Shown one piece after another: positions 1-22,936 of a stretch of DNA of 64,000 nt. Origin of the DNA: an uncultured Planctomycetia bacterium. Its GTDB lineage: Bacteria > Omnitrophota > Gorgyraeia > 2-02-FULL-51-18. Where the stretch lies: assembly GCA_964431835.1 (NCBI GenBank), contig CAYSKO010000005.1, positions 52,167 to 116,166 on the forward strand, written 5' to 3'. A program made the translations under genes and the position numbers. A model generated the notes under the pieces. It was not told the DNA's origin and did not search any database. It saw only the letters and a program-made list of their open reading frames with translations. Every line of letters starts with the position of its first letter. Position 1 is the first letter of the stretch.

Positions 1-3000
1 GTACCGAGAAGGCCGGAAATCTCGCGGCCAGCGCGCAGGATGTGTCCCGGGGAGAACCAGCCCTCGGCGAACACGTATTTGTCGTAAACGAGTGTGACGC
101 GCTCGAGGGCCGGCATGGAAAGAACGCTCGTGCGGTACCCGAGGACGGTCAGGCTTTCGAGGCCGGCCTCGTGCAGGCGGCGCTCCAGGAGGTTGAACGC
201 CTGGGTGTCGGGCTCGACGACGTGGAGCGTCTTGACGCGCGGGTTGGCTTTCGCGAAACCCACGATGTCTTCGGCGTTGTCGTAGGGGCCGATGAAAAGA
301 ACTTCGTCTTCCGGCCCGTACCCGTCGGGCCGGATCCCCGCTTTTCGCAAGTAGCGGTTCAGATTCTCGAAATCGAAAGCGTACATCCGGTGTGTCATCG
401 TGAGTGCGTTTCCGGAAGCGCCCGCCGCATACCGTTTATTCGTGCGCGCGATCCGGCCGTCCGTGTCCCACTTCTTGATCAGAACGGCGGGCTGGGAAGG
501 AAAACGCACGACGATCGTCCGGATCCAGCCGGAATCGAGCGTGTGTCTTTGCCGGCGGTCGGGGAAGCCCCCCATCAAGTGGAAGCGGCGAAAGAGGGCT
601 TCTTCGCTCCAATACCAATCGTCTCCGCTCGCTTCGGAGCGTGTGACGCCGAGCACGAGCCCACGGCCGTCGTTTTCGATCGACACGCGGACTTCCCCTT
701 GTGATTCCCGGAGCGAGCGCTCGACAAGAATTCCGAGCGCGCGGCGGAAACGTCCGGGGTGGACGCCGTTCGCCGCGAGGTTTATGGGCGCAAGGAGATC
801 GATTTGGACGCGAGCGGCCTGTCCCGGCGGCAGGGTCGCCAGCGCCTGCTGGATGAGCACGATCCCGTCGCTTTGGCTGCCGTCGTTCGCCATGCGCGCA
901 CCCGACGGCGCCGCGGATTTCGACCCGAACGCGGTGACGAGCGTTGGGAGAACGCCGGTGACGATCCGCAGATCGCCGCCGACGCGAGAGGATAAGCGGC
1001 CGACCAGCGAACGGCCGATCGTCTCGGAAGACCACGGCGACACTGCGCTCTCGTCCATCACGCGGAGAATCTCCTTCATGAGCACCCACTGCCGGGCGCG
1101 CCAGTATTTATCGAGCGTCGCATTCTCCACGCTTTCGAGATAAGCTTCGTGCGACGTCGTTTCCTCCTCCCGGGGCGGCAAAGGGAAATCGAAATCCGGG
1201 TCGTCGACGACGTTCTTGCTCCAGAGAGCGAGCCAATCGGAGAGAATTCTCCGCACGAGCGGCGACTTCCGGCCGTCGGGAAGCGCTTGCGCGAGATAAA
1301 GCAGCGTCCGCATGTTAGCGATGCTGACGTTCAGCTCCGTCCCCTCCGGATAAAGCCGCGCGACGAGCTCGTGGAACCGCGACGCGATCCCCGCGCCTTG
1401 GTGGGGCGGGAAGGTCGTGTAAGAAGGTTCGACGACAAGCCCCCCTTCTTTCATCGAATGGCGAAGGGCGAGCGTGGCCGCGAGCTGATCGCCGGACGAG
1501 CGGAACCAACCGGATTTCCGGTAGACACGGAACCGGGCGTAATGCGGCGCTCCGACGACCGGGTCTGAACGGAGATAGTAGCCGGGGCCGAAAGCGATGC
1601 CGTCCAACGCCTCGCCGACGGGGCGCGCGATATCGAGGGCCGGCGAGTCCGAATCGAGCAGCCGTTCGATGCGCCCCCGGGTGGCAGAGACACCGGTGCG
1701 GTAGAAGAGCCAAGCATTGTAAGTGCGCCGGAGGAATCGCGTGAAAGCCGGGCGGGCGCTCCCTTCCGCGGCCACCCGCGCGCCGGAGGCCCGGACGGGG
1801 TCGGCGGAAGGCGTCCCCTCAGGCGAAGGCGGAAGGTAAATGGTGCGGTAGCGTGCGGGGAGCGGACGGGTCGCGCCCTCGTCGTCAGTGGACGTTTCGA
1901 TCCGCGCCACGGAACGCAGCCGTTCGAGTGCCGGAAATTTTGAGCGCGGATAACGGTTCGTCACGTGAAGCCGCATCGAGTCGGCGAAGCTCGCCGGATC
2001 CAGGGCGTGCTCGTATTCGGGAAGCGCATTCCGGTTGTTCAGCCGGTATAAAAGGGTCGTGATCCCCGTCGAAGGCCCGCTCGACCAACCTTCGATGACG
2101 ACGCCTTCGAGCCCCGTTTGGATAAACAGCTCGCCTCCGCGGCGGAGTTTCTCGTTCTTGATCTGCGCGACGAGCTCGAGTTTATTCTGAACGTAGGGCA
2201 GAACCGAAGTTCCGATCAGGATCACGTCGGCTCTCCCCTTAAAGGGTACACCGAGGTCGAGATCGGCGATCGTCTGGTTCTTTTCGAACCACGCGCGGAA
2301 TTCCGGAGACAACCAGCGTTCGGCCTTGCGGCGGACGTCCGAGGGAAGGGACGCGAGGTATTTTTCACGGTCGATCGAGAGACGTTCCTTGTTCACGAAC
2401 CGCAGTTTCACCCGCGGGCCGTAACGTTCCCGGAGTTCCGCCGCCGACGCCCCGAGGCCGGCGCCGAGGATCCAGACGTCGATTTGCTTGCGGGTTTCGA
2501 GCCGCCTCTGAACTGACCTCTCGACCGCGCCTTGAGTCACGTCGTCCTCCTGGGTGAAATCGCGCGCGACGTTCTGTGTTCCGACGTAAGGATTTCCTTC
2601 GGCCATGCGCGCTCCCGCCGGCCGTTCGAGCACCATCATTTTCCCGCTGACGCGGGTGGGGAGGCCGGTGACGCGCGTCAATTCCTCGGCCGCGGTGCGG
2701 CGGAATTCGTCCTGGGCCTCCGAAAAGAGCTCGCGTAGGCGCCCCAGGGAGTTTTCGACTTCGACGCGAGACGCGTGCGCCGGATCGTCCGGGGAAAGAT
2801 TCAGCGTCTCGAAAACGCTGCCGAAAAATTGAGTGTAGGCGAGCCCCATCCCCAGCGCGGATTCGCCGTCGCGTATTTCGCGGGCCCATCTCAAAAGGCC
2901 CGGGGGCAAGGAACGGTACAAACCGCCGGCCGTCAGATCCTCCTCGAGTTTCTTTAAGGCGGCGGAATTCAAGAGCGCCGTGGCTTCGGCGTACATCGCC

Positions 3001-6000
3001 TCGTAAAGTGCCCCGCTCCGCGTGTTTTGATGGACGATCTGCTCCGCCTGGCGAAGGGCCCGGTTCACCGCCTGCCGCGAGACGAGGTCGTTCACCGCCT
3101 CACCCTTCCAGAGTCCGCCTCCGCGATCCATCCAGGTGACTTCCCCGCCCTCGAACGCCGTGCTGAAGACATAAGCTTCGGGGACGAGACGATCCCCTCG
3201 CTTGCGGAACACCGCGAGTTTTTCCATGTCGGCGCCGCCGGACAACGGCGAGAAACCAGCGACGAGCGCGCCGCCCTCGCGCAAAGCCGCCGCCAGCGCC
3301 TCCCGGTTTTCGGGACCCGGAACGTTGAAGACCCGGACGAGATCCGCCGGAGGAAGCGCCGCCGTACGGTAATCGGCTCGAATGAACGAAACGCCGTTCC
3401 TAGAGAACAGGTTCCACGGGGAGGCGACGACGGGCCAGCGAGAATGAACGGAAGTGGGCAGCCAGCGCCCGAGGAAACGCGTTAAGATCTCGGAAAAGCG
3501 ACCGCGCGCGGTGCCGCGAACCCGTGCGGCGTACACCGACGCCTCGGTGAGGGTCCGCGGGACGACGTCTCCGGCGAGAATCACTCCGGAGGACGTGTCG
3601 AGCGCCACGATGTTCCCGGCGGCGTCGAAGAGGATCGCCTCGACCGTCACCGTGAACGACAGCGGGCCCACGTCCTGGTTCGCCAAGAGACCGCTTCTTT
3701 TGGCGCTCACGACAACGGCAGGCCGCACGATATCGACGCCTTTTACCGTGAAGGCGCCGCGCGGCACGATTTCCGAAATCTTCTTCGCCATCTCGAGTGT
3801 AGTGACGGGCGGATAACCGACGCCGATGTCGTAGATTTGGAGTTTACGGCGTTCGGCGCGGGCGCGGGCGGCGAGAGCCGGCACGATCTCCGAAGCCAGG
3901 AAGTCATCGACGCGCCGCAGACGGCCCGCGAACGTCGTGAAGTTGGAGGAGCCCGCAGGACCAGCCTGCGCGGTCTCCAGTTTCTCGAGGACGATCCCGT
4001 AAGCCGCCGGCTTGTCGCCGTTCGGAAGGACCTCCGCCGAAACCACGCGGAAACCGCGGGAGGCAAAATAGCCGGAAGCTTCGTCGGCCGAAGCGAAGAC
4101 GTTTTCGAGCATCGCCGAGAAGATCGCCGCGTCAAGCCGGGATTTTTTGCGTTCCGTCTCAATGCGCCCGAGCGCGCGCGCCGGATCCGCCGGAAGCGGG
4201 CCGCGGCGTCTTTCCAGAAGCTCCGCGTTCGCCGCGGCGAAATCGCCGCGCTCGACGTGCGCCTTCAGAAGGTCGCAGAAATCCTCGGCGGCCTGGAGAG
4301 CGCCGGCCGCTAGAGTCGCTTCCGCCGTGTAATCGGAATCCGGGTGGTGCAGTGCGAGAACGGCCCGGCCGCCCGGCTTGAGAGCCCGCAGGAGTTCGGC
4401 GGCGGCGGCGTCGCGATCGGCATAATCGTAACTGAAACTGTAGAGGGCTGCGTCGAGCTCCCCGTCCACGAAGCCTGTGCTTTCGGCGGATCCGCGCCGG
4501 AAGTCGATGCGCGAAGGCGGCTCGCCTTCCCTGTCCATTTCGAAGATGTCGACGGCTGTGATGCTCGCGCCGGGGAAACGGCTGGTCATCACGCGGGACA
4601 AGAAAAGATCGGCGCCCGCGCCGATGTCGCCGAGCTTTCGTCCTTCACCGGTGCCCCAGTACGCGCGCAGGCCGTTTTCGATGAAAAGTTCGACGGCCGG
4701 CGGGTAGGTGTCGAACGATCCTTGGCGGTTTTGGCGCAAGTTCTTCTCCCACACATCCACCCAGCGATCCTCAATGTCGTCACTCGAAGCCTCGAACGCC
4801 ATCCGCACACCCGACGCCGGCAGACGCCAGAGCTCCGCGCTCTCCCCGTTTAAGAGGACGGTGACGGGCTCCCAGCCCTTCTTACGGAACGCGAACTCGT
4901 AGTTTTCCCACAGGTTCACGCGGGGGATCTTCGGGTAACGCTTCGCGATGCGCCCGGAGTTCGACGCGTAAAACGATTCGATTCCCGCGGCCCGGAGTTC
5001 CCGGACCATCTCAGCGATCGCGTTTTCGATCCAGGGCCGGAAGACATTGCGGACGGACGTCGGACGCAAGAGACGGTACCCTAGAGAGGGGTGCATTTCG
5101 TCGAAGATCGCGGAGGACCGGCCGTCGATCGTTTCGAATTTCACCTGGATCTGCCCGAACGACCCTCTCGGGCCGATGTCTTCCTGCGAGGATCGTGCGT
5201 CGAGGGCCGCGAGTCCGGTGTAGGCCTTCCGCGTCGCGGCGTCCGGCGTCACGACGTAAACGTCGAACGCGCGGTCGTACTCGATCGTCGCGCCCACGAC
5301 GCCGCCTTTTCCGCTCCATTTGATGGGTTGTGGGGTAGAGAATATTCCCCGCAGACGCTCGGCCGGGGCCTGCCCTCCATACACCATGCGGGCGCCGCTG
5401 GCGGAGGCGACGGCCTTGCGCTCGAGGGCGTGACCCACGTACAGCGGCCGGGCTTCCGCGCGGCCGGCGATTTCGGCCAGCTCGGCGTCCGAGACCGTCC
5501 TCAGATTGGCGTTATTGAACATGGCCTGCTCTTGTCCGGAAAGCGTTTTTTCGAAAAGCGTCCGCGTCGCGGCGTTCATGTGGAAGAGGCTGTCGGAAAG
5601 GTACGCGTTGGGCGCGGCGTCCGGCGGCGCGATGAATCCGTAATCGCGCAAAAGAAGGTCCATCGCGATCAGGTTCCGCATGTCGGGGTGGGTCCGCGTC
5701 ACTTCGGGGTATTCCTCGAAGTAGCGGTTTAAAAGCGCTCGAAAAAGGCCGGCTCCGCGCAGCTGGGTTCCGTCTTCCAGAGCGAACCGGATGAGGAAAC
5801 CGCGCAAGCCGTAAACCGAGTCGCCCGCCGCGTCCGTCATCCCGTCCGAGGCGTACACGGACATCACCGGTTGCAGGCCGTCCGCGTGTTTCGAGACGTT
5901 ATCCCAGACGTCGACGCGCAGCTGGCGCCCGGTCCGGGTCGTGAGCAGCGCGAGCTCTCGCCCGGGCAGTGCTTCCAGGAGGAAAGGCTTCCATCCCTCC

Positions 6001-9000
6001 GCCGACTGACCGAGCGCCATCCGCGCGCCGGTCGCTTGAAGAGCCGCGGGGATCGAACGGTCGGTCGAAATGAAGCGATAGAGAGAGAACTTCTCGAACG
6101 GAGGCAGCGCCGCGTCGTTCTTGTAAAGGCCGAGCAGCGTCTTGAGCGCTTGGGCGGAACGGTCCAGGCGGTACGCGCTCGCTAATTTCCAGTAAACGAG
6201 CCAGCGAGGATTGGTTTTTTCGATGAGTCCGACGAGCGGTTCGAATTCGGAGGGATAAGCCGGCGCCACGATCCCGGCCGCGATTTTTTCCGCCTCGGCC
6301 CATTCGACCGACGGAAGGGAGTCCATCACCCCTTCGGGAGCGCTGTCCAGCCTGCGCCCGGCTCTCCCCTTCTCCGAAAGAAGGATGTCCGTGTATTCCA
6401 ATTCCGTTGGCGCGAAGGTTTCCGTCGGCGCGCTCGAATCGTAGGCGTTGAGTCCCGCCAAAAGCGATTTCATGAGTTCCATCGCGAAGGTTTGATCGAT
6501 GAATTCCGGGCTCGTGACGATCGAAACGATTTTCCCCCGCGCGACGATCGGAACGAGCTGCCGCATCGCACGTTGGACGGCCGCGTCGCGGGCCCATCGG
6601 TCGGCTCTCGGCTCGTCGATGCCGGCGTCCCGATGGCTCTTACGGATCCTCTCGTACAACCCCATGAAGAAGTCGAGATCCACGTCGACGATGTCGATGG
6701 AGGGGGCGGAGAGAACGTCCTCGAGCGGTTTTTTCTCGAGACCGTAATGGAAATGAAAAGGGCTGTCGTCGGGCCGGGCATCCGCATCCCAAATCAGCCG
6801 CTGCGGAAGGACCTGGTCGTCGATCTCCGCCAAATGGAACCACGCCTCGGCGTCGATCAGGCCGGCGGCGACCAACGGCGCGATGAAGTCGTCGATTTCA
6901 TAACCCCGGATCGCTTCGGCGAGTTGGGCCGGATCTTCGACGTCGACCGGCGGGAGAAAGTCGAGATCGACCGGCTTCGCGAAAGCTCGTTTGGAGACCA
7001 GGTCGTCCGGATGCCGGTCCACGTGCAGAAGCGTCGAGTTGTTCCCGATGAGTCCCGTCCGCCTGGCTTCCAACCAAAACGGCAGCGCTTTGTGATGGTG
7101 GTCGCTTAGAAAAATCTGGCGGCCCGCCGACGTCGTGATCTTGAAGCTACGCTTGCCGAAAAGAGCGGAGTCCGTCGCGGCCGTCACTTCCGCGGGAACC
7201 TGAAACGTGCCGAACGGTTCCGCGCCGGCGGCCATCCTCGCACCTCGCTCCCCGCTCACCTCCAGCGCTTCCAGAGCGTCGAAAAGTTCGGAGCGCTTTC
7301 CGTCGAGTTCTTTCAGATCGACGCGCACGAGGCGCGCCACGAGCTTGCCGAGTTCCCGCTCGCCCGCGAAAAAAGAAAGCCGCGCGGTCGCACGGTCCAC
7401 GATACGCTGGTTCGGCGCGTAAAAAAGAGATTTGAACGTTTCGCGGCGCGTCGCGAGCGGTTGGTCCCACGCACGCATCGCATCGGGAGAACCGGCGGCC
7501 GCCGCGAGCGCCCGCTCGAGAGTGGGCCCGAGCTCCACGAGGCTCATCTGGGCGATCGAGACGCCGAGCGCGAAGAGATCCGCGTCGTAAGGGTTAAGCG
7601 GCACCTCTTCGGCGAAGGAGAGAACGGCGCTCGTGGGCATGTAGCCCGGCGTACCGCTGATCCCGTAAACCGATTCCACCCCGAGCTTCGCGCGGCTCAG
7701 CCCGTCCCCTTCGAGCAGGGACACGCCGAAATCGTGCAAAACCGGAGGCCGCGCGTCGATCTCGGCCGGCGTCGGCGCGCGCGGTCCGAAATACGAGGGA
7801 GGAAACCAGAAATTGGAGGGCTTCACGTCGCGGTGGGCCACGCCCCGGGAATGCACGTGGCGGAGCGTGCGCGCGAGCGTCTTAAAAAGATGAACGCGCG
7901 ATTCCGCAGGCCACTGCGCGATGAGACGCGACGCCTCCTCCGCATCGATGGCCTGCCGGGCAAGCGATTCGATCTCCTCCCGGGTACCGAAAGGCTCCAA
8001 AAGAAGCGCGACCGGGGTTGTGCGCGCCCGCAGGGCTGCCGCGAGATCCCGCAGGGCGGCTCGTATCTCCGGCTCGCCGCTCTTGGAAGACAGAAGATCG
8101 TAAACCGAAACGAGCTTCGCCGAAATTTCGCTGAAATCTTCCTGCGCACCGGCCGCTCGGGGCAGATCGCGGCGCGCACCTCCGGGATTCACCGCGTTTA
8201 AGATCGCAGCTTGCGCGACGATTCCGCGCAGGATATGGAGGGGTGGAAAAATTTCTCGAAGTGGCCGGGTTTCGAGCGTCGCGACGTCGGCCTCGTCCAG
8301 AGTGACGCGTCCGACCGAATCCACGGCGTACCATCCTTTCGGCAGGAGAGCAACGGAATCCCCGGCCCAGTACGCGCTCGCGAAGCCGCCGCTCCCAATG
8401 ACGCTCCCCACCAGGAAGTCCGCCATCCGCGCGGCGGATACCACGGGAATCTCGGCGGAGTCCGCGTCGCGCGTTTTCGTCGCGTAGCCGAGAGCGGCGA
8501 GGGCCGCTTTGGATTCGATCGCTGTCGCTCGTCCCGGGAAGCGCGTCGTCTCGACTTGCTTGGCCTGGTCGATCAGCTGGTAAATCCAGTCGAATTCGGC
8601 GGCGGGAAGCTTGCGGGCCGTCTCGAAAGTGCCGCGCGGAAGCATCGAGCCGGCGGCGGCGGGCTTTTTCCGGAGCGGCGCCAGAAGCAGCTCCTCGTAT
8701 TTCGCCTGGTTCGTTTCCGTGGAAACCGCCGGAGTGAGGACCGCGTACGAAAAACCGTCTTCGCGGAGAAGTTTTTTGAGGTGCGGCGTGTGGTAGCCGC
8801 CGGTGATCAGAATCGCGACGCTTTCCTTCTCCGCGGCGAGCGCCTTCGACGTATTCCGAACGAACGCAAAATCGCGTTCCCGCACCGAATCGTAAAAGGC
8901 TTCGAGCGGCGTCTTCGCCTTCTCGAGCGCGTCGCGGTACGGCACGAGATCCTCGAACGCGCCCGCTTCCGCGAGAAGACGGTTCACAAAAGCAAGGTAG

Positions 9001-10229
9001 GACGCGGTCGCGAAATCGGTCTCGTTCGCGCGGAACGCTTCGAACTCCTCCGCGCTCATGCGGATGCGAAACGCCGTGTCGAGAAGCGCGACGTAGCGGT
9101 CGATCGCGCGGAGTTTCCGCGGCGCGTCGCCGGCGAGAAGTTTCGCGTAGCAGGCCTCGCGCGCCGCCGCCGCGTCCTTCAGCACCGCGTCGAGATCGAT
9201 TTCAGAGAATGCGCGGAGATAATCCACGTATTTCGAGAGCGCCGGATAATCCTCGAGACGGATTCCCTTCTCTCGCGCGATAACAAAAGTGTTTCGGAAG
9301 TGAGGATAACGCGAGAGCGCGGCGCCCTTGGCGTTCCCCATCCGTTCGAGCGAAGCCCGGAGTTCCGAACCCCCGCCGCGGCGCGCGATTTCTTCCGCGA
9401 GAGCCCCCTGCTCGAGATTGGCACGCTCGAAGTCGATCTCCTTTTCCGTCGCTTCGAGCGCGCCTAGGCGAGCGAGCGACGGATACCCAGAGGCATCGAT
9501 ACCGGCGTACGCCAGAAGTTCCAACGCCGCCCTAAAATCGGCTTCCCCTCCGGCCGCGGCCGCGCGAGCCTCGAACGCCAGAAGTTCCCGCGGATAGAGA
9601 CGGCGCTTCATTTTCTCAATGGCCGTGCGCACGCGCGATAGGTATTCGAGCGCGTCCGTGCGGACCGCCGCGAGGTCCGCGTAGCTCGAGACGCTCTTGA
9701 AATAGAGAGCTTTGTCCTCGACGCCGACGATCTTCATCGGCTTATCCGAGATGAGATTGAGGTATTCCTCGCCGGAGATTTTTCCCTCGACGAGGAAACT
9801 CTTGGCCACGCGCTTCCAGGTTTCCGGCGACGCGATCGACTTGATCGGGGTGAGCGTCGCGTCGCGCGAGCCGCCTTCGACGAGCACGAGCCGCACGTCG
9901 TATTTCTCCATGATCGCGTCGAGTGCCCAGGCTAGATTCTCCTGGCCGCTCAGATTTGAATGGGCGTCCTGAATATGGATGACGAAGGGGCCTGTGCCGC
10001 GATGAACTTCCCGCAAGGAAGCGAATGGAAGGGGCGGCTCGAAACGCGAAGGGTCCGAAGCGAGCGAAACCGCCGAAGGGGCGGGAGAAGACAGCGGGGC
10101 GGCCTGCGCGACTTCCGCCGCCAGAAAAGAAGCGACGAGAACGCAAGCGACCGTGCGCAGTCCGAGACGGCGCCGGTCCCCGCGTAACCAAAATTTATAT
10201 AAAGCGAGCAATGCGAGTGCGTTGGGCAT
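1..10229 (-). CDS. Giant multidomain protein, 5' end (ATG 10229) complete and 3' end beyond window start. At least 3409 aa lie in the window. It carries a signal peptide, a TraB/GumN/Tiki-like domain, a Hanks-type kinase core, arginase/deacetylase-like motifs, at least three SAM-methyltransferase-like modules and an FkbM-like module.
   Basis: Manual reverse-complement translation from ATG 10229 (MPNALALLALYKFWLRGDRRRLGLRTVACVLVASFLAAEVAQAAP...) found no in-frame stop down to nt 1. Codon third positions are strongly G/C-biased, like the verified nuo genes. No minus-strand ORF in the supplied track shares this frame (start coordinate congruent to 2 mod 3) anywhere in 1-10270, as expected for a frame with no stop inside the window. 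Motifs were checked directly against the forward sequence, e.g. HRDVKPSNFWF is the reverse complement of 7803-7835 and VLHDFGVS of about 7730-7753. Confidence 0.8.
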   Translation of the reverse strand, partial: MPNALALLALYKFWLRGDRRRLGLRTVACVLVASFLAAEVAQAAPLSSPAPSAVSLASDPSRFEPPLPFASLREVHRGTGPFVIHIQDAHSNLSGQENLAWALDAIMEKYDVRLVLVEGGSRDATLTPIKSIASPETWKRVAKSFLVEGKISGEEYLNLISDKPMKIVGVEDKALYFKSVSSYADLAAVRTDALEYLSRVRTAIEKMKRRLYPRELLAFEARAAAAGGEADFRAALELLAYAGIDASGYPSLARLGALEATEKEIDFERANLEQGALAEEIARRGGGSELRASLERMGNAKGAALSRYPHFRNTFVIAREKGIRLEDYPALSKYVDYLRAFSEIDLDAVLKDAAAAREACYAKLLAGDAPRKLRAIDRYVALLDTAFRIRMSAEEFEAFRANETDFATASYLAFVNRLLAEAGAFEDLVPYRDALEKAKTPLEAFYDSVRERDFAFVRNTSKALAAEKESVAILITGGYHTPHLKKLLREDGFSYAVLTPAVSTETNQAKYEELLLAPLRKKPAAAGSMLPRGTFETARKLPAAEFDWIYQLIDQAKQVETTRFPGRATAIESKAALAALGYATKTRDADSAEIPVVSAARMADFLVGSVIGSGGFASAYWAGDSVALLPKGWYAVDSVGRVTLDEADVATLETRPLREIFPPLHILRGIVAQAAILNAVNPGGARRDLPRAAGAQEDFSEISAKLVSVYDLLSSKSGEPEIRAALRDLAAALRARTTPVALLLEPFGTREEIESLARQAIDAEEASRLIAQWPAESRVHLFKTLARTLRHVHSRGVAHRDVKPSNFWFPPSYFGPRAPTPAEIDARPPVLHDFGVSLLEGDGLSRAKLGVESVYGISGTPGYMPTSAVLSFAEEVPLNPYDADLFALGVSIAQMSLVELGPTLERALAAAAGSPDAMRAWDQPLATRRETFKSLFYAPNQRIVDRATARLSFFAGERELGKLVARLVRVDLKELDGKRSELFDALEALEVSGERGARMAAGAEPFGTFQVPAEVTAATDSALFGKRSFKITTSAGRQIFLSDHHHKALPFWLEARRTGLIGNNSTLLHVDRHPDDLVSKRAFAKPVDLDFLPPVDVEDPAQLAEAIRGYEIDDFIAPLVAAGLIDAEAWFHLAEIDDQVLPQRLIWDADARPDDSPFHFHYGLEKKPLEDVLSAPSIDIVDVDLDFFMGLYERIRKSHRDAGIDEPRADRWARDAAVQRAMRQLVPIVARGKIVSIVTSPEFIDQTFAMELMKSLLAGLNAYDSSAPTETFAPTELEYTDILLSEKGRAGRRLDSAPEGVMDSLPSVEWAEAEKIAAGIVAPAYPSEFEPLVGLIEKTNPRWLVYWKLASAYRLDRSAQALKTLLGLYKNDAALPPFEKFSLYRFISTDRSIPAALQATGARMALGQSAEGWKPFLLEALPGRELALLTTRTGRQLRVDVWDNVSKHADGLQPVMSVYASDGMTDAAGDSVYGLRGFLIRFALEDGTQLRGAGLFRALLNRYFEEYPEVTRTHPDMRNLIAMDLLLRDYGFIAPPDAAPNAYLSDSLFHMNAATRTLFEKTLSGQEQAMFNNANLRTVSDAELAEIAGRAEARPLYVGHALERKAVASASGARMVYGGQAPAERLRGIFSTPQPIKWSGKGGVVGATIEYDRAFDVYVVTPDAATRKAYTGLAALDARSSQEDIGPRGSFGQIQVKFETIDGRSSAIFDEMHPSLGYRLLRPTSVRNVFRPWIENAIAEMVRELRAAGIESFYASNSGRIAKRYPKIPRVNLWENYEFAFRKKGWEPVTVLLNGESAELWRLPASGVRMAFEASSDDIEDRWVDVWEKNLRQNRQGSFDTYPPAVELFIENGLRAYWGTGEGRKLGDIGAGADLFLSRVMTSRFPGASITAVDIFEMDREGEPPSRIDFRRGSAESTGFVDGELDAALYSFSYDYADRDAAAAELLRALKPGGRAVLALHHPDSDYTAEATLAAGALQAAEDFCDLLKAHVERGDFAAANAELLERRRGPLPADPARALGRIETERKKSRLDAAIFSAMLENVFASADEASGYFASRGFRVVSAEVLPNGDKPAAYGIVLEKLETAQAGPAGSSNFTTFAGRLRRVDDFLASEIVPALAARARAERRKLQIYDIGVGYPPVTTLEMAKKISEIVPRGAFTVKGVDIVRPAVVVSAKRSGLLANQDVGPLSFTVTVEAILFDAAGNIVALDTSSGVILAGDVVPRTLTEASVYAARVRGTARGRFSEILTRFLGRWLPTSVHSRWPVVASPWNLFSRNGVSFIRADYRTAALPPADLVRVFNVPGPENREALAAALREGGALVAGFSPLSGGADMEKLAVFRKRGDRLVPEAYVFSTAFEGGEVTWMDRGGGLWKGEAVNDLVSRQAVNRALRQAEQIVHQNTRSGALYEAMYAEATALLNSAALKKLEEDLTAGGLYRSLPPGLLRWAREIRDGESALGMGLAYTQFFGSVFETLNLSPDDPAHASRVEVENSLGRLRELFSEAQDEFRRTAAEELTRVTGLPTRVSGKMMVLERPAGARMAEGNPYVGTQNVARDFTQEDDVTQGAVERSVQRRLETRKQIDVWILGAGLGASAAELRERYGPRVKLRFVNKERLSIDREKYLASLPSDVRRKAERWLSPEFRAWFEKNQTIADLDLGVPFKGRADVILIGTSVLPYVQNKLELVAQIKNEKLRRGGELFIQTGLEGVVIEGWSSGPSTGITTLLYRLNNRNALPEYEHALDPASFADSMRLHVTNRYPRSKFPALERLRSVARIETSTDDEGATRPLPARYRTIYLPPSPEGTPSADPVRASGARVAAEGSARPAFTRFLRRTYNAWLFYRTGVSATRGRIERLLDSDSPALDIARPVGEALDGIAFGPGYYLRSDPVVGAPHYARFRVYRKSGWFRSSGDQLAATLALRHSMKEGGLVVEPSYTTFPPHQGAGIASRFHELVARLYPEGTELNVSIANMRTLLYLAQALPDGRKSPLVRRILSDWLALWSKNVVDDPDFDFPLPPREEETTSHEAYLESVENATLDKYWRARQWVLMKEILRVMDESAVSPWSSETIGRSLVGRLSSRVGGDLRIVTGVLPTLVTAFGSKSAAPSGARMANDGSQSDGIVLIQQALATLPPGQAARVQIDLLAPINLAANGVHPGRFRRALGILVERSLRESQGEVRVSIENDGRGLVLGVTRSEASGDDWYWSEEALFRRFHLMGGFPDRRQRHTLDSGWIRTIVVRFPSQPAVLIKKWDTDGRIARTNKRYAAGASGNALTMTHRMYAFDFENLNRYLRKAGIRPDGYGPEDEVLFIGPYDNAEDIVGFAKANPRVKTLHVVEPDTQAFNLLERRLHEAGLESLTVLGYRTSVLSMPALERVTLVYDKYVFAEGWFSPGHILRAGREISGLLG
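100..300 (-). other. FkbM-family-like methyltransferase motif region of the giant protein, cut by the window edge
   Basis: LFIGPYDNAEDIVGFAKANPRVKTLHVVEPDTQAFNLLERRL resembles the FkbM/Methyltransf_21 v-A-F-E-P-x-P-x-x-F-x-x-L signature. Confidence 0.3.
2070..2520 (-). other. SAM-methyltransferase-like Rossmann module 3 of the giant protein
   Basis: DVWILGAGLGASAAEL (GxGxG), ADVILIGTSVL, LRRGGELFIQTG. Confidence 0.4.
3200..3840 (-). other. SAM-methyltransferase-like Rossmann module 2 of the giant protein
   Basis: QIYDIGVGYPP (motif I-like), ADLVRVFNV, LREGGALVAGFSP (motif III-like). Confidence 0.4.
4320..4710 (-). other. Class I SAM-dependent methyltransferase-like Rossmann module 1 of the giant protein
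   Basis: Motif I LGDIGAGADLF, post-I ITAVDIFE, motif II LDAALYSFSYDYA, motif III LKPGGRAVLALHHP. Confidence 0.55.
6480..7140 (-). other. Arginase/deacetylase (ureohydrolase)-fold-like metal-binding motif region of the giant protein
   Basis: Ordered motifs FLSDHHH, LLHVDRHPDD (DxHxD) and IDIVDVDLDFF (DxDxxD) resemble the three Mn-ligand motifs of arginase/agmatinase/UPF0489-like proteins. Pattern only. Confidence 0.3.
7500..8430 (-). other. Hanks-type Ser/Thr protein kinase-like catalytic domain inside the giant protein
   Basis: Gly-rich loop VIGSGGFASAY, candidate VAIK-equivalent Lys (ALLPK), catalytic loop HRDVKPSN (H at 7835), DFG (LHDFGVS) and activation-segment GTPGYMP appear in canonical order. 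About 188 residues separate the G-loop from HRD, which implies an insert of roughly 60 aa. Confidence 0.65.
8730..10050 (-). other. TraB/GumN/Tiki-like domain of the giant protein
   Basis: N-terminal FVIHIQDAHSN...VRLVLVEGG and C-terminal SVAILITGGYHTPHLKKLLREDGFSYAVL resemble the TraB/GumN family motif (v-G-A-G-H-l ... LL-R-x-x-G-Y-x-V). Confidence 0.4.
10092..10229 (-). other. Predicted N-terminal Sec signal peptide or signal-anchor of the giant protein (positively charged RGDRRRLGLR, hydrophobic TVACVLVASFLAA, AQA-AP cleavage-like site)
   Basis: n/h/c-region organisation read from the translation; no tool run. Confidence 0.45.
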
Positions 10230-10409
10230 TGGGTTAGGGCAAGTATACCCGCCGTCCGGCTCAAATTCAAAATAGAGACGATCCATAAAACTATATTATA
10301 AAAAGACTTATAAAAATCTTATTCTACGCTGACTCACTTTTGACTGGAAACGCTTAAAACAGGCCGTTTCCTCTATATACAGGGGCCTCCAGTGCTTTTT
10401 CCGATTCCT

Positions 10410-10438
10410 TTGACTTGGTTTTTCGTTTTCTGTACAAT
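10410..10438 (+). promoter_or_regulatory. sigma70-type promoter of the nuo-mrp cluster: -35 TTGACT (10410-10415), 17-nt spacer, -10 TACAAT (10433-10438)
   Basis: Near-consensus hexamers with optimal spacing lie 34 nt upstream of the nuoA ATG, in an AT-rich divergent region. Confidence 0.6.
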
Positions 10439-10471
10439 GGCTCCCATAAACCGTTCGGAGCACTTTTTTTC

Positions 10472-10837
10472 ATGACTTTATTAAACGATTATTCTTACGT
10501 CTTCGGATTTCTCGTCATCGGCGTCGGGTTCGTGGTCGTCAACACCCTCCTGCCCCTCCTGATCAGTCCGCGAAGCCGCGGTTCCCGCGCGAACGACCCG
10601 TACGAAAGCGGCGAAGTCCCGATCGGCGGCGCGTGGGTACAGTTCGACGTCAATTACTACCTCTTCGCATTGATCTTCATCGCCTTCGACGTCGAAGCCG
10701 CATTCCTTTTCCCGGTTCTTGCGGTGTACCGCGAGGTTCCGGGCTGGGGCGCGTTCGTCGAGGTCGCCGTTTTCCTCTTCATCCTGTCGTTCGCGATCCT
10801 CTACGCTTGGAAAAAAGGACTCTTCTCCTGGAAGTGA
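10472..10837 (+). CDS. nuoA: NADH-quinone oxidoreductase subunit A
   Basis: MTLLNDYSYVFGFLVIG...; the track ORF 10415 starts at a TTG inside the promoter, so ATG 10472 is preferred. Confidence 0.9.
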   Translation: MTLLNDYSYVFGFLVIGVGFVVVNTLLPLLISPRSRGSRANDPYESGEVPIGGAWVQFDVNYYLFALIFIAFDVEAAFLFPVLAVYREVPGWGAFVEVAVFLFILSFAILYAWKKGLFSWK

Positions 10838-10840
10838 TGC

Positions 10841-11509
10841 ATGGCCGATCCGATTAAAGAACCCCAGCTGTATAAAAACCCCGCTTACCTGCAGACCCAG
10901 TCGCCTGCGCCAGGAATCGTGAACCTTTTCCACGTCGAGGACGTGCTGAACATGGCCCGCGCCAATTCGCTTTGGCCGCTCACGTTCGGCCTCGCCTGCT
11001 GCGCCATCGAGATGATGGCCGGCGGCGCCGCGCGTTACGATCTCGACCGCTTCGGCTTCGGCGTGTTCCGTCCTTCGCCGCGCCAAGCGGACGTGATGAT
11101 CGTCTCGGGTACGATCTCGCGCAAGATGGTTCCCTGCATCAAAACGCTCTACGACCAGATGCCGTCTCCGAAATACGTGATCGCGATGGGCGGCTGCGCC
11201 ACCGCGGGTGGCCCGTTCAAATTCCCGGGCCAGTACGGCATTCTCGAGGGCATCGACAAGATCATTCCCGTGAACGTCTACATTCCCGGCTGCCCGCCGC
11301 GCCCCGAAGCGCTGATCGCCGGCATCCTCGAGCTTCAAAAGCAAATCAAAGCGGGCAACGTGCAAGGCGTGATGTCGCCGGCGGCCGTCAACGACTCTCA
11401 GGACGCGCGCCCCGCCGAATACAAAAACGCGGTCTCCCGCGCCGATTTCCGCAAACCCGCCGCTCCGGCCGCTCCCGCGGCTCCTGCGTCGGCGGAGCCG
11501 AAAGCCTAA
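10841..11509 (+). CDS. nuoB: NADH-quinone oxidoreductase subunit B (20 kDa, N2 cluster) with Ala/Pro-rich C-terminal tail
   Basis: [28 protein letters not shown] Cys motifs. Confidence 0.95.
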
Positions 11510-11512
11510 AAC

Positions 11513-13144
11513 GTGTCCCCCGTCGCTGAAAAAGACATGAAAGCCTGGCTCGTCTCGTCGGTGAAGCCCGACGAGTTCGCGGAAAAAGATCCGAAGTCGG
11601 GCGTTCTCTTCGAAGCTCTCGTCGGCCGCGAGCATATCCGGGAAGTCGCACGCGAATTCCGCACGCAGGGGTGGTTTCTCGAGTCGATTTCCATCGTCGA
11701 CTTCGCCGAATGCTTCGAGATCGTCTACCATTTCAACAAATGGGGCGTTGCCCGCCGAGCCTGCGTAAAGACGCTCGCCCTGAAGGCGGAAGGCGAAGCG
11801 GCGTCCGCTCCCTCGATCTCGGACGTCTTCCGCGCCGCCAACTGGCACGAGCGCGAGGCGTACGACATGTTCGGTCTCGTCTTCGAAGGCCACCCGAACC
11901 TGAAGCGCCTCCTTCTTCCCGAAACTTCGAAGATCCACCCGCTACGCAAGAGCTTCAAGGGCGAACCCAAGGGCTCCGACGTCGAGGACTCCCTGCGGCT
12001 CATCCAAGAAGACACCGAGGGCTTCGAGGTGCGCTACCCGAGCCAGCTCACGAAGAGCCAGAAGGATTACTACCTGAATCTCGGCCCTCAGCATCCGAGC
12101 ACGCACGGCGTCCTTCGCGTCCTTCTCCATTTAGACGGCGAGCGCGTGCTAGACGGCGAGCCGGTACTCGGCTACTCGCACCGCAACCAGGAAAAGATGT
12201 TCGAGATCCAGAATTACCTCGCCTGCTGGCCGCAGTTCGGCCGCCTCGATTACGTCGGCGCGATGGCGTTCAATTTCGGCTACGCCCACCTGATCGAAAA
12301 GGCGATGGGCATTGAAGCGACGCCCCGCGCCCAAGCGATCCGCGTCCTGGCGACGGAGCTAAACCGCATCTCCTCCCATCTCCTCTGGATGGGCACGTTC
12401 CTCCTCGATCTCGGGGCGTTCACGCCGTTCTTCTACTGCTTCGACGACCGCGAAAAGATCATCGACATCCTCGAGATGGCCACCGGCGAGCGCCTCACCT
12501 ACGACTACTTCCGTTTCGGCGGGCTCGATCACGACATCCCTGAGGAGATGCTCCCCGCCGTGAAGGCGTTCGTCCCCGAATTCAAGAAACGACTCAAGGA
12601 TTACCACAAGCTCGTCACGAAGAATCCAATCTTCATCTCGCGCACGCGGGGCCTCGGCGTCCTCACGAAGGACCAGGCCCTGAATTACGGCGTGAGCGGT
12701 CCCTGCTTGCGCGCCTCGGGCGTCCGCCAGGATCTTCGCCGCGACGAGCCCTATTCTATTTATCCCACGCTCGATTTTGACGTTCCTACCATGACGGACG
12801 GCGACGTCTGGTCGCGTTACACAATCCGTATGCGCGAGATGGAGGAGAGCCTGAAGATCGTCTCCCAGCTGGTGGAAAAAATCCCGGCCGGAGACGTCAC
12901 GCTCGGCAAGTTGCCGAAGAACGTGCCGAAGGGCGAATATTATTCCGCGGTCGAATCGGCGCGCGGCGCATTCGGCATCTATCTCGTCAGCGACGGCACG
13001 CTCAATCCCTACCGCATGAAACTGCGTACGCCCTCGTTCTGCAATTTGAGCGCGTTCAGCGAGATGATCCCCGGCTGCCTCCTCTCCGACGTGATCGCGA
13101 TCCTGGGCTCCATCGACATCGTTCTCCCGGAGATCGACCGGTGA
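11513..13144 (+). CDS. nuoCD: Fused NADH-quinone oxidoreductase subunits C and D
   Basis: NuoC motif [29 protein letters not shown], then Nuo[13 protein letters not shown]...RTPSF in one 543-aa frame. GTG start at 11513, alternative ATG at 11537. Confidence 0.9.
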
Positions 13145-14124
13145 CCGGAAACCCCGTCCTCGACGAGCTTCTGAAAATCGTCCTCTGGGGAACGCTCGTG
13201 ATCCTTTTCGTGTCCGTGAACGCGCTTTTCCTCGTCTGGGCCGAGCGCAAAATCTCGGCGCGCATCCAGCTACGCCAGGGCCCGCTTCACGTCGGCTTCC
13301 AGGGGACGCTGCAGACCGTGGCCGACGCGATCAAGCTCATCTCGAAGGAATTGACGCTTCCCAAATCCTCGGCCAAGAGCCTCTACATGCTCGCTCCGGT
13401 GCTCGTCTTCGCCCCGTCGATCGCGGCGTTTCTCGTGCTTCCGTTCTCGCCGGAAATGCCGATGCGCGATCTCAACATCGGCTTCCTCCTCATCTTCTCG
13501 CTCACGAACGTCACTTTCATCGGCGTCTTCCTCGCCGGCTGGGCCTCGAACTCCAAATACGCGCTCCTGGGCTCCATGCGCGCCATCGCGCAGAACATCT
13601 CTTACGAAATTCCCCTCCTTCTTTCCACGATGGGCGTCGTCCTCTGCGCGGGGACCCTCCAGATGTCCGGAATCGTCCGGGCCCAGGAGCACGGCTGGTT
13701 CCTTTTTAATGGCCAGGTGATCGCGTTCGTCGTCTTCATCGTCTCGGCACTCGCCGAGGCCAACCGTGCGCCATTCGACATTCCCGAGGCCGAATCCGAG
13801 CTCGTCGCCGGTTTCCACACCGAGTACTCGGGCATGCGGTTCGCGCTTTTTTTCCTCGGCGAGTACACGGCCGTCTTCATCTCATCCGCCGTGGCCGTGA
13901 CGCTTTTTCTCGGCGGCTGGAGCGGCCCGCTCCTTCCTCCGCCCGTCTGGTTCCTCCTTAAGACCTATTTGATCGTTTTCGTGGTGATGTGGATCCGGTG
14001 GACGTTTCCCCGCCTGCGCTCGGATCAGCTCATGGCGCTGGCCTGGAAGGTGCTGATTCCGTTCGCTCTCCTCAACATCCTTTTGACGGCGCTTTTTATC
14101 CAGCTGCAAAGGAGCCTCGCATGA
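13141..14124 (+). CDS. nuoH: NADH-quinone oxidoreductase subunit H
   Basis: GTG start overlapping the nuoCD stop (GTGA); typical NuoH TM sequence. Confidence 0.9.
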
Positions 14125-14687
14125 GCGTCGTCGGTCGCTATTTCAAAGACGTCTTCTCGGGTTTCTGGGCGCTCCTCGCGGGTATGGCCGTCACCGCGCG
14201 CTATTCGGTCAAACCCCCGGTCACGCTGATCTACCCCAAGGAGCGCATGCCTCTCAAGCACTTCAAGGGTCCCATCGCTTTCACGACCGACGAGAAGACA
14301 GGGGACCACAAGTGCATCGCCTGCAATGCCTGTATCAAGACCTGCCCGTCGCGCTGCATGTCGCTCGTCGCACAAAAAAGCGCTCTGGACGGAAAGCGCG
14401 TTCTCACGGACTTCAAAGTAAATTACATGCTCTGCAGCCTGTGTAGCCTGTGCATTGACGTCTGCCCCACCGACGCGCTGAAGCACGACTCCCCCAATTA
14501 CGACATGGTCGCCTCGAACCAGCGTGACATGCACATGGATCTCTTGAAGCCTTACCGCGACGCCGGCACGCCGCTCACGAAGATACCGGTGGTCGATCCC
14601 GCGGCCGCGGCGGCAAAGCCTTCGCCGACGAAGCCCGAGAACAATGCCGCGGACAAGCCGCTCAGCCCCGAGGAACCGAAATCTTGA
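14121..14687 (+). CDS. nuoI: NADH-quinone oxidoreductase subunit I (2x[4Fe-4S]) with Pro/Ala/Lys-rich C-terminal extension
   Basis: CIACNACIKTCP and CSLCSLCIDVCP; ATG 14121 overlaps the nuoH stop (ATGA). Confidence 0.9.
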   Translation: MSVVGRYFKDVFSGFWALLAGMAVTARYSVKPPVTLIYPKERMPLKHFKGPIAFTTDEKTGDHKCIACNACIKTCPSRCMSLVAQKSALDGKRVLTDFKVNYMLCSLCSLCIDVCPTDALKHDSPNYDMVASNQRDMHMDLLKPYRDAGTPLTKIPVVDPAAAAAKPSPTKPENNAADKPLSPEEPKS

Positions 14688-15181
14688 GCCTACCCGACGC
14701 CTTTTTCCTCTTCTTCGCGGGAATCACGCTGGGCGGAGCCGTTCTCGCGGTGACCTTGCGGAACGTCTTCTACAACGCGCTCTCCCTGATCCTCTGCCTG
14801 GCGGGTGTGGCGGGACTTTTCGTTTTCCTGAACAGCGAGTTCCTCGCGGTGATGGAGGTCATCATCTACATCGGCGCGATCTCCATCGCGATCCTCTTCG
14901 CGATCATGCTCTCCCAGCCTATGATGCCCGTAAAGGAGCCCTTAAACCGCGGGAAGGTCGCGCGCGCGGCGCTCGTGGCGGGTCTTCTTTTCCTCGGACT
15001 CTCGCGCGTCATCGGGCGTTCGCAGTGGTCCACGGCTCCGCTCGAGGGCGACTACTCGCTTCAGGGAATCGGCCGCATGCTGCTCGGAGCCAACATGATC
15101 CCGTTCGAGGTTGTTTCGCTCGTGCTCCTAGTCGCCATCATCGGTGCGCTGGTCCTCACGGGCTCGAAAGGACGCGGATGA
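14684..15181 (+). CDS. nuoJ: NADH-quinone oxidoreductase subunit J
   Basis: TTG start overlapping the nuoI stop; NuoJ-like TM protein. Confidence 0.8.
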   Translation: MSLPDAFFLFFAGITLGGAVLAVTLRNVFYNALSLILCLAGVAGLFVFLNSEFLAVMEVIIYIGAISIAILFAIMLSQPMMPVKEPLNRGKVARAALVAGLLFLGLSRVIGRSQWSTAPLEGDYSLQGIGRMLLGANMIPFEVVSLVLLVAIIGALVLTGSKGRG

Positions 15182-15489
15182 GCGAGAGTCTCGGCGCCTA
15201 TCTGTTCATTTCGACCGCCCTTTTCTGCTTGGGAGTATACGGCCTTCTCTCGCGGCGGAACCTCGTGGCGATGCTAATCTCGCTTGAGCTGATCCTGAAC
15301 TCTGCGAGCCTCAACTTCGTGGCGTTCAACAAGTTTTCGCTCATCAACAAGGCCGCCGGCCAGACCTTCGCGGTCTTCGTGATCGCGCTGGCCGCCGCCG
15401 AGGTCACGATCGGCTTGTCCCTGATTCTTCTTTTCCACCGTAAACGCGACTCGATCAACGTCGAGGACGCGGGAGAGATGAAAGGATGA
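15178..15489 (+). CDS. nuoK: NADH-quinone oxidoreductase subunit K
   Basis: MSESLGAYLFISTALFCLGVYGLLSRRNLVAMLISLELILN... with conserved Glu residues in TM helices; ATGA overlap with nuoJ. Confidence 0.85.
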   Translation: MSESLGAYLFISTALFCLGVYGLLSRRNLVAMLISLELILNSASLNFVAFNKFSLINKAAGQTFAVFVIALAAAEVTIGLSLILLFHRKRDSINVEDAGEMKG

Positions 15490-18850: not shown

Positions 18851-18851
18851 C

Positions 18852-20273: not shown

Positions 20274-20401
20274 ATCCAGGGAGCCGGAACCCAAACACGG
20301 CGAAACTCGGCCTGAAGGCCGCTCTTCCAGCCCTTTTACCAGCTTCTCTTTTTTCTTTCCTCGCGGCTCTCGCGCCTTCCGCCTTGTCGGATGGCAGGCG
20401 G

Positions 20402-22935: not shown

Positions 22936-22936
22936 C

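Follow-up and report, generated by a model that had tools for sequence, protein, structure and literature searches.

A giant gene divergent from a complex I operon

This study describes a giant gene located at the edge of a 64,000-nucleotide stretch of DNA (hereafter the window) from an uncultured Planctomycetia bacterium of the Omnitrophota lineage (contig CAYSKO010000005.1, positions 52,167 to 116,166). The gene lies on the minus strand, divergent from a complex I operon, and belongs to a family, here called cassette giants, whose members share one plan: an export-type N-terminal segment, an N-terminal module (N-module) of about 480 amino acids (aa), unrelated cassettes delimited by the short motif G-A-R-[LM]-A, and a conserved C-terminal domain. 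The coordinates of the features are collected in Table 1.

The first-pass annotation of the window had claimed a frame of at least 3,409 codons from ATG 10229, uninterrupted by stops, biased towards G/C at third codon positions and missing from a program-made list of open reading frames (ORFs). All of this was borne out. In this frame, the reverse complement of window 2-10229 translates into 3,409 sense codons without a single stop, and the GC content at codon positions 1, 2 and 3 is 0.67, 0.48 and 0.77, respectively, versus 0.62 for the window, which is a coding-type pattern. An upstream in-frame stop is found just past 10295 (the stop-to-stop frame starts from 10295), and ATG 10229 is the first ATG of this frame. 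The frame is absent from the list solely because it runs past the window edge and is not terminated by a stop, and the ORFs listed within 1-10270 all lie in other frames or on the opposite strand. With about 0.029 stops per codon at the base composition of the window, we estimate the chance of an open frame of 3,409 codons at about 1e-44.

The neighbouring NuoB protein was looked up by exact match, and this pointed to a Joint Genome Institute (JGI) metagenome contig, Ga0163149_10000666, which differs from window 841-16432 by 2 mismatches in 15,592 bases. The gene on that contig is called as a 4,854-aa product, and this protein (P0001) is identical to the window translation at 3,407 of 3,409 positions. 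It provides the extension to the true C-terminus that had been called for: the remaining 1,445 codons, at the 3' end, fall outside the window, past its position 1. The gene is a genuine Omnitrophota gene of 4,854 codons, and window 3-10229 (minus strand) covers its 5' 70%. The best promoter-like match stops 13 nt short of the ATG, in a stretch without a recognizable Shine-Dalgarno sequence (window 10230-10270); as far as the sequence indicates, the mRNA may be leaderless or have a very short leader.

A five-residue motif at module boundaries

The peptide G-A-R-M-A recurs at every apparent domain boundary of the window translation. The pattern [GA][AV]R[MV][AV] yields 8 matches in the window protein, whereas shuffled sequences give an expectation of 0.2, and within the window the motif is confined to the frame of the giant gene. 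A pattern-free count of pentapeptides in the tails of 126 family members ranked GARLA (266 times) and GARMA (100 times) first and second. Across the family, [GA][ASTV]R[MLF][ASTV] is present at 756 sites against 56 expected, with a median spacing of 274 aa, and the motif is found 2.06 times per 1000 aa of family ORFs versus 0.10 times in other ORFs of the same loci. The information is held in the five positions, with a weak preference for A/S at position -1, and the flanks are uninformative. The arginine is set by the search pattern, yet it is also kept in variant motifs found without that pattern. Lineage variants include GSRV, GARA, AARLA and xSRM[TA].

Several observations show what this motif delimits. 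The stretch from -10 to +10 around it is short of bulky hydrophobic residues, as expected of an exposed linker, and in the giant protein and two relatives the Pfam domains all fall between motifs. Where a cassette is shared between members, the homology begins 1-7 aa past a motif in the other member and, in the best cases, ends at the next motif or within 18 aa of it. The motif is thus a mark of exposed module boundaries. Neighbouring motifs can also be close together. Distances of at most 36 aa make up 10% of the inter-motif distances across the family, and past the window, at aa 4113-4151 of P0001, two motifs stand 34 residues apart with a 29-aa "cassette" between them.

The codons of the motif vary synonymously (for instance GGT GCG AGG ATG GCC in the window), and the constraint therefore acts on the peptide. 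We also considered an internal ribosome-binding site and start at G-A-R-M (GGAG...ATG), which was rejected because the codons for Gly, Ala and Arg are variable and seldom form a Shine-Dalgarno sequence. There is, nevertheless, a nucleotide-level peculiarity. In relatives with a low GC content (GC at third codon positions, GC3, of about 0.45 for the gene; for example L005, L014, L024 and L040), the motif codons reach a GC3 of 0.7-0.95, and CGG and GGC are used at frequencies of 0.56 and 0.62 against backgrounds of 0.22 and 0.37, respectively. The codons favoured in these relatives are GGC GCG CGG CTG GCG; one lineage, L011, is without such bias. These GC-rich codons could reflect gene conversion at cassette borders, a rare-codon pause, or a signal at the DNA or RNA level.

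The N-terminal segment and the N-module

The first 46 residues contain the sole hydrophobic segment (aa ~22-46) that a Kyte-Doolittle scan detects in the full 4,854-aa P0001, and the layout of a hydrophobic stretch followed by "AAP" is conserved across the family alignment. On inspection, these residues read as a putative Sec signal peptide or signal anchor. The giant protein is also poor in cysteine, which represents 0.10% of its residues (5 in 4,854). The same share holds across the family, compared with 0.67% for seventeen other window genes, corresponding to a six-fold depletion.

With regard to the N-module, a fold search places it in the superfamily comprising TIKI, TraB, erythromycin esterase (Ere) and ChaN. 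The AlphaFold2 model (predicted local distance difference test, pLDDT, 85) has a core made of a parallel beta-sheet with flanking helices, and this alpha/beta core is split by a helical insert of about 290 aa (aa 173-466). The catalytic set of TIKI proteins consists of two histidines and two glutamates, arranged as E-x-H, a Glu about 28 residues further on, and a second His (PMC6254334). In the N-module, D88-x-H90 corresponds to the E-x-H of TIKI, the first acid being Asp and not Glu, and the spacing between H90 and E118 is the same as between H85 and E113 in Bcr135 and between H3902 and E3930 in RRSP. Judged from the order of the motifs without superposed coordinates, H480 would be the equivalent of H4030 in RRSP. 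As D88-x-H90, E118 and H480 are nearly invariant across the family alignment, the N-module appears, at the sequence level, to keep an intact D/E-x-H...E...H catalytic set.

At the sequence level, the order of acid-x-His, a Glu 28 residues on and a final His thus appears to be that of the TIKI/TraB/PrgY/GumN/erythromycin-esterase/ChaN superfamily, in which a membrane-tethered or extracytoplasmic location is common (Tiki, TraB/PrgY, ChaN). It differs from the superfamily in its all-helical insert, in the Asp that replaces the first Glu, and in being fused to, or encoded directly upstream of, proteins of several thousand residues. It also escapes profile detection: aa 1-602 have no Pfam match at E<=1 save one spurious, and NCBIfam has no match to the N-module. 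Tiki/TraB enzymes are known or proposed peptidases, and we regard the N-module as a protease-like head with a peptidase-capable fold, that is, as a candidate hydrolase (peptidase or esterase).

The cassettes and the C-terminal domain

The chain carries unrelated enzyme domains, none of which is dominant: two Pkinase domains, UPF0489, Methyltransf_11 and orphans. The first kinase cassette (aa 603-1000, scanned alone) matches Pfam Pkinase at 34.4 bits versus a gathering score of 31.7 and gives weak matches to kinases among the PDB sequences. The second, at aa ~3720-4112 of P0001 and thus past the window, reaches 41.4 bits; the Gly loop, HRD and DFG elements of Hanks kinases are found in these cassettes. 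The arginase-like cassette matches PF12640 at 43.2 bits versus a cut-off of 27, with only positions 1-83 of the 167 of the profile covered. A closer relationship with peptide arginases was not found, as the NCBIfam peptide arginase NF052474 scores 17.3 bits against a cut-off of 350 and the PDB peptide arginase 8brp shows no clear similarity (E 0.35). Methyltransf_11 matches aa 1868-1957 at 36.2 bits versus a cut-off of 21.2, and the PDB entry for CouO is matched by the same cassette with an E-value of 0.0013. Nothing beyond the kinase and this one methyltransferase was obtained in PDB sequence searches of single cassettes. The cassette at aa 1406-1611 is common to one other member, L003, in which it is also bounded by motifs, the homology starting 6 aa past a motif and ending at the next one. 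No internal repeats were detected by self-BLAST, and an origin by internal duplication, or a repeat protein, was accordingly rejected.

Much of the domain content noticed in the first-pass annotation could be recovered. The proposed signal peptide is consistent with the hydrophobic segment followed by A-Q-A-A-P; the TraB/GumN/Tiki-like N-terminal domain is supported by the fold search, though invisible to hidden Markov models (HMMs); the Hanks kinase core is confirmed by the Pkinase score, with HRD and DFG visible; and the arginase-like module is confirmed by PF12640. One of the three or more S-adenosylmethionine (SAM) methyltransferase modules was verified, whereas the second and third, like the FkbM-like motif, found no Pfam, NCBIfam or PDB-sequence match at E<=1 in aa 2544-2819 and aa 3115-3409. 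The suggestion of a new multi-enzyme assembly line is not upheld, since no carrier or condensation-type domains were found, and that of a giant effector or toxin is compatible with the evidence. We also tried an assignment to anti-phage defence (MADS, PD-T4-6, BREX PglW) and rejected it: the similarity to these systems is that of generic kinases and methyltransferases, and the neighbours are nuo and mrp genes. The giant protein scores, for example, 46 bits against a cut-off of 460 for MAD6, and all NCBIfam and PADLOC matches represent generic domain similarity far under the family cut-offs.

At the other end of the chain, 92 of 114 long members terminate in a small-residue tail, typically ...A-[VI]-G-[AS]-A-A, with a motif-like (G)AR[LM]A often about 10 residues before the end. 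The tail is preceded by a conserved region. The C-terminus of the family is a conserved alpha/beta domain ending in ...A-[VI]-G-[AS]-A-A-COOH, and this domain is retained together with the tail in the same 92 of 114 members. The whole 386-aa C-terminal module was rejected as a family-wide domain, as jackhmmer converged on only 4 members; its last ~100-270 aa have a wider conservation.

A large Omnitrophota family with split systems

An exhaustive HMMER search of aa 1-1200 against 1.84 billion representative proteins gave 1,614 representative protein clusters at E<=1e-30. The best 150 of these align only through aa ~20-525, are mostly 2,000-7,364 aa long and, apart from the near-identical P0001, have 36-55% identity. 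A genome scan, with one genome per species, revealed 128 relatives, nearly all in metagenome-assembled genomes (MAGs) named Candidatus Omnitrophota or Omnitrophica or in third-party annotation (TPA) bins named "uncultured Planctomycetia". A single MAG can contain up to eight or more paralogues, and the cassettes of other members include alpha-amylase, FHA and HATPase domains. All family proteins bear the public name "hypothetical protein". The giant gene thus belongs to a very large, unannotated and essentially Omnitrophota-restricted family. In two loci (L063, 5096-16867, and L070, 2-16369), two family genes lie head-to-tail in tandem. Some family genes are interrupted by an in-frame stop or a frameshift (L046 at 14246-14248, L073 at 6579-6581, and junctions in L018, L038 and L072), with motifs and the C-terminus typical of the family persisting downstream of the interruption; assembly error, pseudogenisation or recoding may each account for this.

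More distant N-modules (28-32% identity) were found as free-standing genes of about 500 aa with their own signal peptides. Each is located directly upstream of a separate large gene that also has its own signal peptide. One partner protein is of 1,344 aa, and the partners in L081 and L083 are without the G-A-R-L-A motif.

The locus beside nuo

A family gene stands divergent beside the nuo operon, as in the window, in at least 15 Omnitrophota loci. The divergent nuo operon is the only conserved neighbour, and no protease, secretion or delivery genes were found near the giant gene in the conserved-neighbour analysis. In the window, the nuo genes are followed by Mrp/Mbh-type antiporter subunits, namely a fused MbhD/MbhE (20267-22528) and MnhE. 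The NuoB of the window is 83-87% identical to that of MAGs labelled Omnitrophota and related bins (L049, L028, L026, L022), which identifies the organism as a member of the Omnitrophota. Among the positional orthologues, NuoB is 83-87% and NuoCD 67-74% identical, whereas identity drops to 46-57% in the N-module and similarity is no longer detectable in the cassette region, apart from the one cassette common with L003. Because similarity vanishes there while the adjacent nuo genes remain 67-87% identical, the cassette region is hypervariable. This hypervariability, the punctuation by the motif and the family-wide N- and C-terminal modules are the most informative features beyond those of the first-pass annotation.

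Table 1 Features of the giant gene and its surroundings. Positions are those of the window, except for the split systems, which are given in positions of their own loci.
Feature	Position	Strand	Basis or remark
Giant gene, codons 1-3409 of 4,854	3..10229	-	Open frame, codon-position GC, JGI contig, P0001
Sigma-70-like promoter match, TTGAAT-17-TATACT	10242..10270	-	Consensus match only
aa 1-46: basic n-region RGDRRRLGLR, hydrophobic segment aa ~22-46, then A-Q-A-A-P	10092..10229	-	Sequence, Kyte-Doolittle
N-module, aa 47-525, family-defining	8655..10091	-	TIKI/TraB/erythromycin-esterase/ChaN-type alpha/beta core
HIQDAH motif (H85-I-Q-D88-A-H90), nearly invariant	9960..9977	-	Family conservation
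E118 in "VEGG" motif	9876..9878	-	28 residues after H90; conservation
H480 in "GGYHT" motif, candidate second catalytic His	8790..8792	-	Conservation, motif order
Motif 1, A-A-R-M-A, aa 599-603	8421..8435	-	Between N-module and kinase cassette
Cassette aa 604-995, Ser/Thr protein-kinase-like	7245..8420	-	Pfam Pkinase; GSGGFASAY loop, HRDVKPSN, HDFG, GTPGYMP
Motif 2, G-A-R-M-A, aa 996-1000	7230..7244	-	Sequence
Cassette aa 1001-1400, UPF0489/FlmR_OhkR_N peptide-arginase-like	6030..7229	-	PF12640; DHHH, VDRHPD, DVDLD
Motif 3, G-A-R-M-A, aa 1401-1405	6015..6029	-	Sequence
Cassette aa 1406-1611, no family match	5397..6014	-	GNAT-like R-G-A-G-L-F motif by eye
Motif 4, G-A-R-M-V, aa 1612-1616	5382..5396	-	Sequence
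Cassette aa 1617-1806, orphan, no detectable relatives	4812..5381	-	Pfam and cassette homology search
Motif 5, G-V-R-M-A, aa 1807-1811	4797..4811	-	Sequence
Cassette aa 1812-2538, class I SAM methyltransferase and ~580 aa without family match	2616..4796	-	Methyltransf_11
Motif 6, G-A-R-M-A, aa 2539-2543	2601..2615	-	Sequence
Cassette aa 2544-2815 with GxGxG stretch	1785..2600	-	Common to P0053 and L010
Motif 7, G-A-R-V-A, aa 2816-2820	1770..1784	-	Sequence
Cassette aa 2821-3109, orphan	903..1769	-	Sequence and profile searches
Motif 8, G-A-R-M-A, aa 3110-3114	888..902	-	Sequence
Cassette aa 3115-3409, runs to aa 3450 past the window	3..887	-	No family match
Complex I (nuo) operon, divergent from giant gene	10415-25238	+	nuoA, nuoB, fused nuoCD, nuoH; further genes: ferredoxin-type nuoI, nuoJ, nuoK, nuoL/M/N-type subunits
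Split system L081	10001-17888		Two N-module/partner pairs in tandem
Split system L083	10001-21584		Partner >3,300 aa, fuses PPDK, PEPCK and malate-synthase domains

Comparison with known systems

The first-pass annotation stated that the protein matches no described bacterial enzyme system. This is right in part only: giant ORFs with unrelated enzyme domains strung along one chain have already been published as a hallmark of the Omnitrophota (Seymour et al. 2023, PMC10066038; bioRxiv 10.1101/2023.11.21.568195; bioRxiv 10.64898/2026.06.07.730766). West-Roberts et al. named "Archaeovorins" in 2023, suspected that Omnitrophota giants are cleaved and stated that the cleavage points were unknown (bioRxiv 10.1101/2023.11.21.568195). 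A 2026 preprint defines a class called "multi-enzyme metabolic cluster", with Methyltransf_11 and HATPase_c among the commonest domains (bioRxiv 10.64898/2026.06.07.730766). The cassette giants resemble these published giants in several respects. They come from the same phylum, carry many unrelated enzyme domains per chain, with Methyltransf_11, HATPase_c and kinases among the commonest, and are poorly conserved and fast-evolving; for both, post-translational cleavage is suspected and a role towards a host or prey is proposed. The published giants are, however, defined by their length (at least 10, 20 or 30 thousand amino acids (kaa), or at least 20 kb) and are rich in transmembrane helices and HEAT repeats, whereas the giant protein has 4,854 aa, one hydrophobic segment and no HEAT Pfam match. 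A TIKI-like head, punctuation by G-A-R-[LM]-A, and a conserved C-terminal domain and tail were not found described in the literature searched on Omnitrophota giants. A giant multi-enzyme ORF as such is thus ordinary for this phylum, and the punctuated head-and-tail cassette architecture appears to be undescribed.

The closest parallel in logic is provided by the MARTX toxins, in which conserved ends also flank a variable array of unrelated, exchangeable effector enzymes, and whose effector repertoires are shuffled between strains in a manner reminiscent of the turnover of cassettes. In MARTX, a protease encoded in cis frees the effectors at short inter-domain sites, which in the cassette giants is a prediction. 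The TIKI fold of the N-module recurs in RRSP, one of the MARTX effectors, but it is cargo there and the conserved head here. The giant protein differs from MARTX in having no RTX or glycine-rich repeats (no RTX Pfam match, and self-BLAST without repeats), no C80 protease Pfam match in the window part and the segments scanned beyond it, and only five cysteines; it has an N-terminal Sec-type signal in place of a C-terminal signal for a type I secretion system (T1SS), and no T1SS genes are nearby. The likeness is one of logic, by analogy, and not of homology.

The polyproteins of viruses (picornavirus, flavivirus, nidovirus) likewise consist of distinct units on one chain separated by short conserved peptides, as found here at each unit boundary, and encode their protease in cis, a role for which the TIKI-type head of the giant protein is a candidate only. 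In contrast to these, the giant gene is cellular and chromosomal, has many paralogues per genome and a cassette set that is not fixed, and its cleavage is proposed.

A proposed exported polyprotein and its alternatives

We favour, at somewhat less than an even chance, the reading of the giant protein as an exported polyprotein that is processed at its motifs. This preference is based on the combination of a peptidase-capable head, a sharp and exposed boundary peptide, interchangeable autonomous cassettes, an export-type N-terminus and a paucity of cysteines. Export of the protein would proceed via Sec and would account for its signal-type N-terminus, its lone hydrophobic segment and the six-fold depletion of cysteine. 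A protease would then cut the exposed G-A-R-[LM]-A sites and free the cassettes as separate enzymes, with short peptides released from close motif pairs. The TIKI-type N-module encoded in cis would be the obvious candidate for this protease. Tail-specific proteases prefer small non-polar C-termini, and a periplasmic enzyme of this type, reading the ...AA C-terminus, could be an alternative. Since ATP and SAM are required by kinases and methyltransferases, the interior of another cell would be the most sensible place for the released units, and a host or prey cell would be the most plausible target, or site of action, of the freed enzymes. Such a site of action would fit the predatory or parasitic lifestyle proposed for Omnitrophota (PMC10066038).

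Several points weigh against this reading. Cleavage at the motif and the candidate protease are proposed from sequence, D88, H90, E118 and H480 are candidate catalytic residues at the sequence level, and the signal peptide was assigned by inspection. Enzymes that depend on ATP, SAM and probably acetyl-CoA are useless outside the cytoplasm unless they are delivered into another cell, and no delivery apparatus was found in the conserved-neighbour analysis. Canonical motifs are scarce or absent in some family members, or replaced by variants (GSRV, GARA, AARLA). The split systems keep the N-module with motif-less partners, and it may thus not be the motif protease at all; its conserved role, at any rate, is not only that of a "G-A-R-L-A protease". 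Finally, the GC-rich motif codons of low-GC relatives hint at an additional or alternative role at the nucleotide level.

Alternatively, the protein could stay intact as a tethered scaffold, its N-terminal helix anchoring a membrane-associated multi-enzyme array in which the motif serves as a linker, a hinge or a docking element, bound for instance by the N-module or the C-terminal domain. The motif does lie within hydrophobic-poor inter-domain stretches, most Omnitrophota giants are interpreted in the 2026 preprint as multi-enzyme proteins anchored in the membrane (bioRxiv 10.64898/2026.06.07.730766), the partners in split systems are large motif-less proteins, and cleavage of the giant protein is itself a prediction. 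We nonetheless consider an uncleaved scaffold rather unlikely. Passive linkers are normally compositionally biased and do not take the form of a sharp pentapeptide with an arginine and uninformative flanks, motifs at times only 10-40 aa apart are hard to square with hinges, and unrelated cassettes with complete turnover speak against a cooperative enzyme machine; moreover, the sole universally conserved enzyme comes from a superfamily that includes peptidases. In a third reading, the conserved 15 nt would be mainly a recombination or gene-conversion site that moves cassettes between paralogues, the peptide being a tolerated by-product. This would account for the excess of CGG (0.56 vs 0.22) and GGC (0.62 vs 0.37) in genes with a GC3 of about 0.45, and it agrees with the many paralogues in each genome and with the exchange of cassettes as motif-bounded units, up to complete turnover at a syntenic locus. 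A DNA site would, however, be expected to vary regardless of residue chemistry, whereas the observed swaps are conservative (L/M/F; A/S/T), synonymous variants are common, and L011 keeps the peptide without a GC3 excess. Fifteen nucleotides are also short for homologous recombination, and no recombinase is found among the conserved neighbours. A junction of this kind as the main function of the motif is improbable, and it can coexist with a function of the peptide.

A location in the cytoplasm would be assumed for a biosynthetic or regulatory mega-enzyme acting on a peptide or a nucleic acid, either as a tailoring array of the type found for peptides that are made by ribosomes and modified after translation (RiPPs) or as an anti-phage system. 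RiPP loci do contain peptide arginases, LanL/LanKC-type kinases, methyltransferases and Tiki/TraB peptidases, and PADLOC gives weak kinase and methyltransferase matches to MADS and PD-T4-6 models, but these matches, as those of NCBIfam, are generic and far under the family cut-offs. No precursor peptide, transporter or defence partner gene is nearby, the conserved neighbour being nuo, and other members carry wholly different cassettes (alpha-amylase, FHA, HATPase), which is not what a conserved pathway would require. Together with the export-type N-terminus and the cysteine depletion, which speak against the cytoplasm, this makes a mega-enzyme very improbable. As for an artefact, that is, a chance frame in GC-rich DNA, a mis-assembled chimera or a pseudogene, the domains are indeed highly heterogeneous and several relatives in MAGs contain in-frame stops or frameshifts. 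This explanation is effectively refuted, and its probability is negligible, given the estimated chance of ~1e-44, the coding-type codon-position GC, an independent JGI assembly that is identical but for 2 mismatches in 15.6 kb, the thousands of homologues with this tripartite architecture, and the conserved place next to nuo in at least 15 loci.

The exported polyprotein and the nucleotide-level signal can also be combined. Cassette giants could be a class of cellular polyproteins not recognised before, Sec-exported "effector necklaces", in which a TIKI-type protease head would free dozens of rapidly exchanged cassettes at a universal G-A-R-[LM]-A site, the GC-rich site doubling as a recombination junction for shuffling between paralogues. 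We regard this more specific proposal as speculative and, in its entirety, doubtful.

Implications for Omnitrophota giants

Giant ORFs are a defining and unexplained trait of the Omnitrophota, and the published question is whether their products remain whole or are cut into pieces. A five-residue boundary motif together with a protease-like head, in well over a thousand clusters, makes the cleavage question testable. The motif may mark the long-suspected cleavage points of these giants, and it predicts exact neo-termini and residues. Should it also punctuate the giants of 10-150 kaa, the largest known proteins would gain the "cleavage map" that they lack. The motif further offers a rule for splitting giants into units for structure prediction and annotation, and the head and tail modules deserve family models, as they are currently annotated as "hypothetical". 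A hypervariable locus with exchangeable, fast-evolving enzymes is, in addition, a natural candidate for factors of host or prey interaction in an uncultivated and possibly predatory phylum.

Other features of the window

Two further reading frames of the window deserve mention. A 485-aa ORF antisense to nuoA and nuoB (10481-11938, minus strand) is rich in Arg, Asp and Gly and without a Pfam match; it is a shadow ORF of GC-rich coding DNA and not a gene. In a protein of 1,081 aa at 50547-53792 (minus strand), a spermidine/spermine-synthase domain (aa 546-696) is joined to TPR repeats at the C-terminus, which is an unusual fusion.

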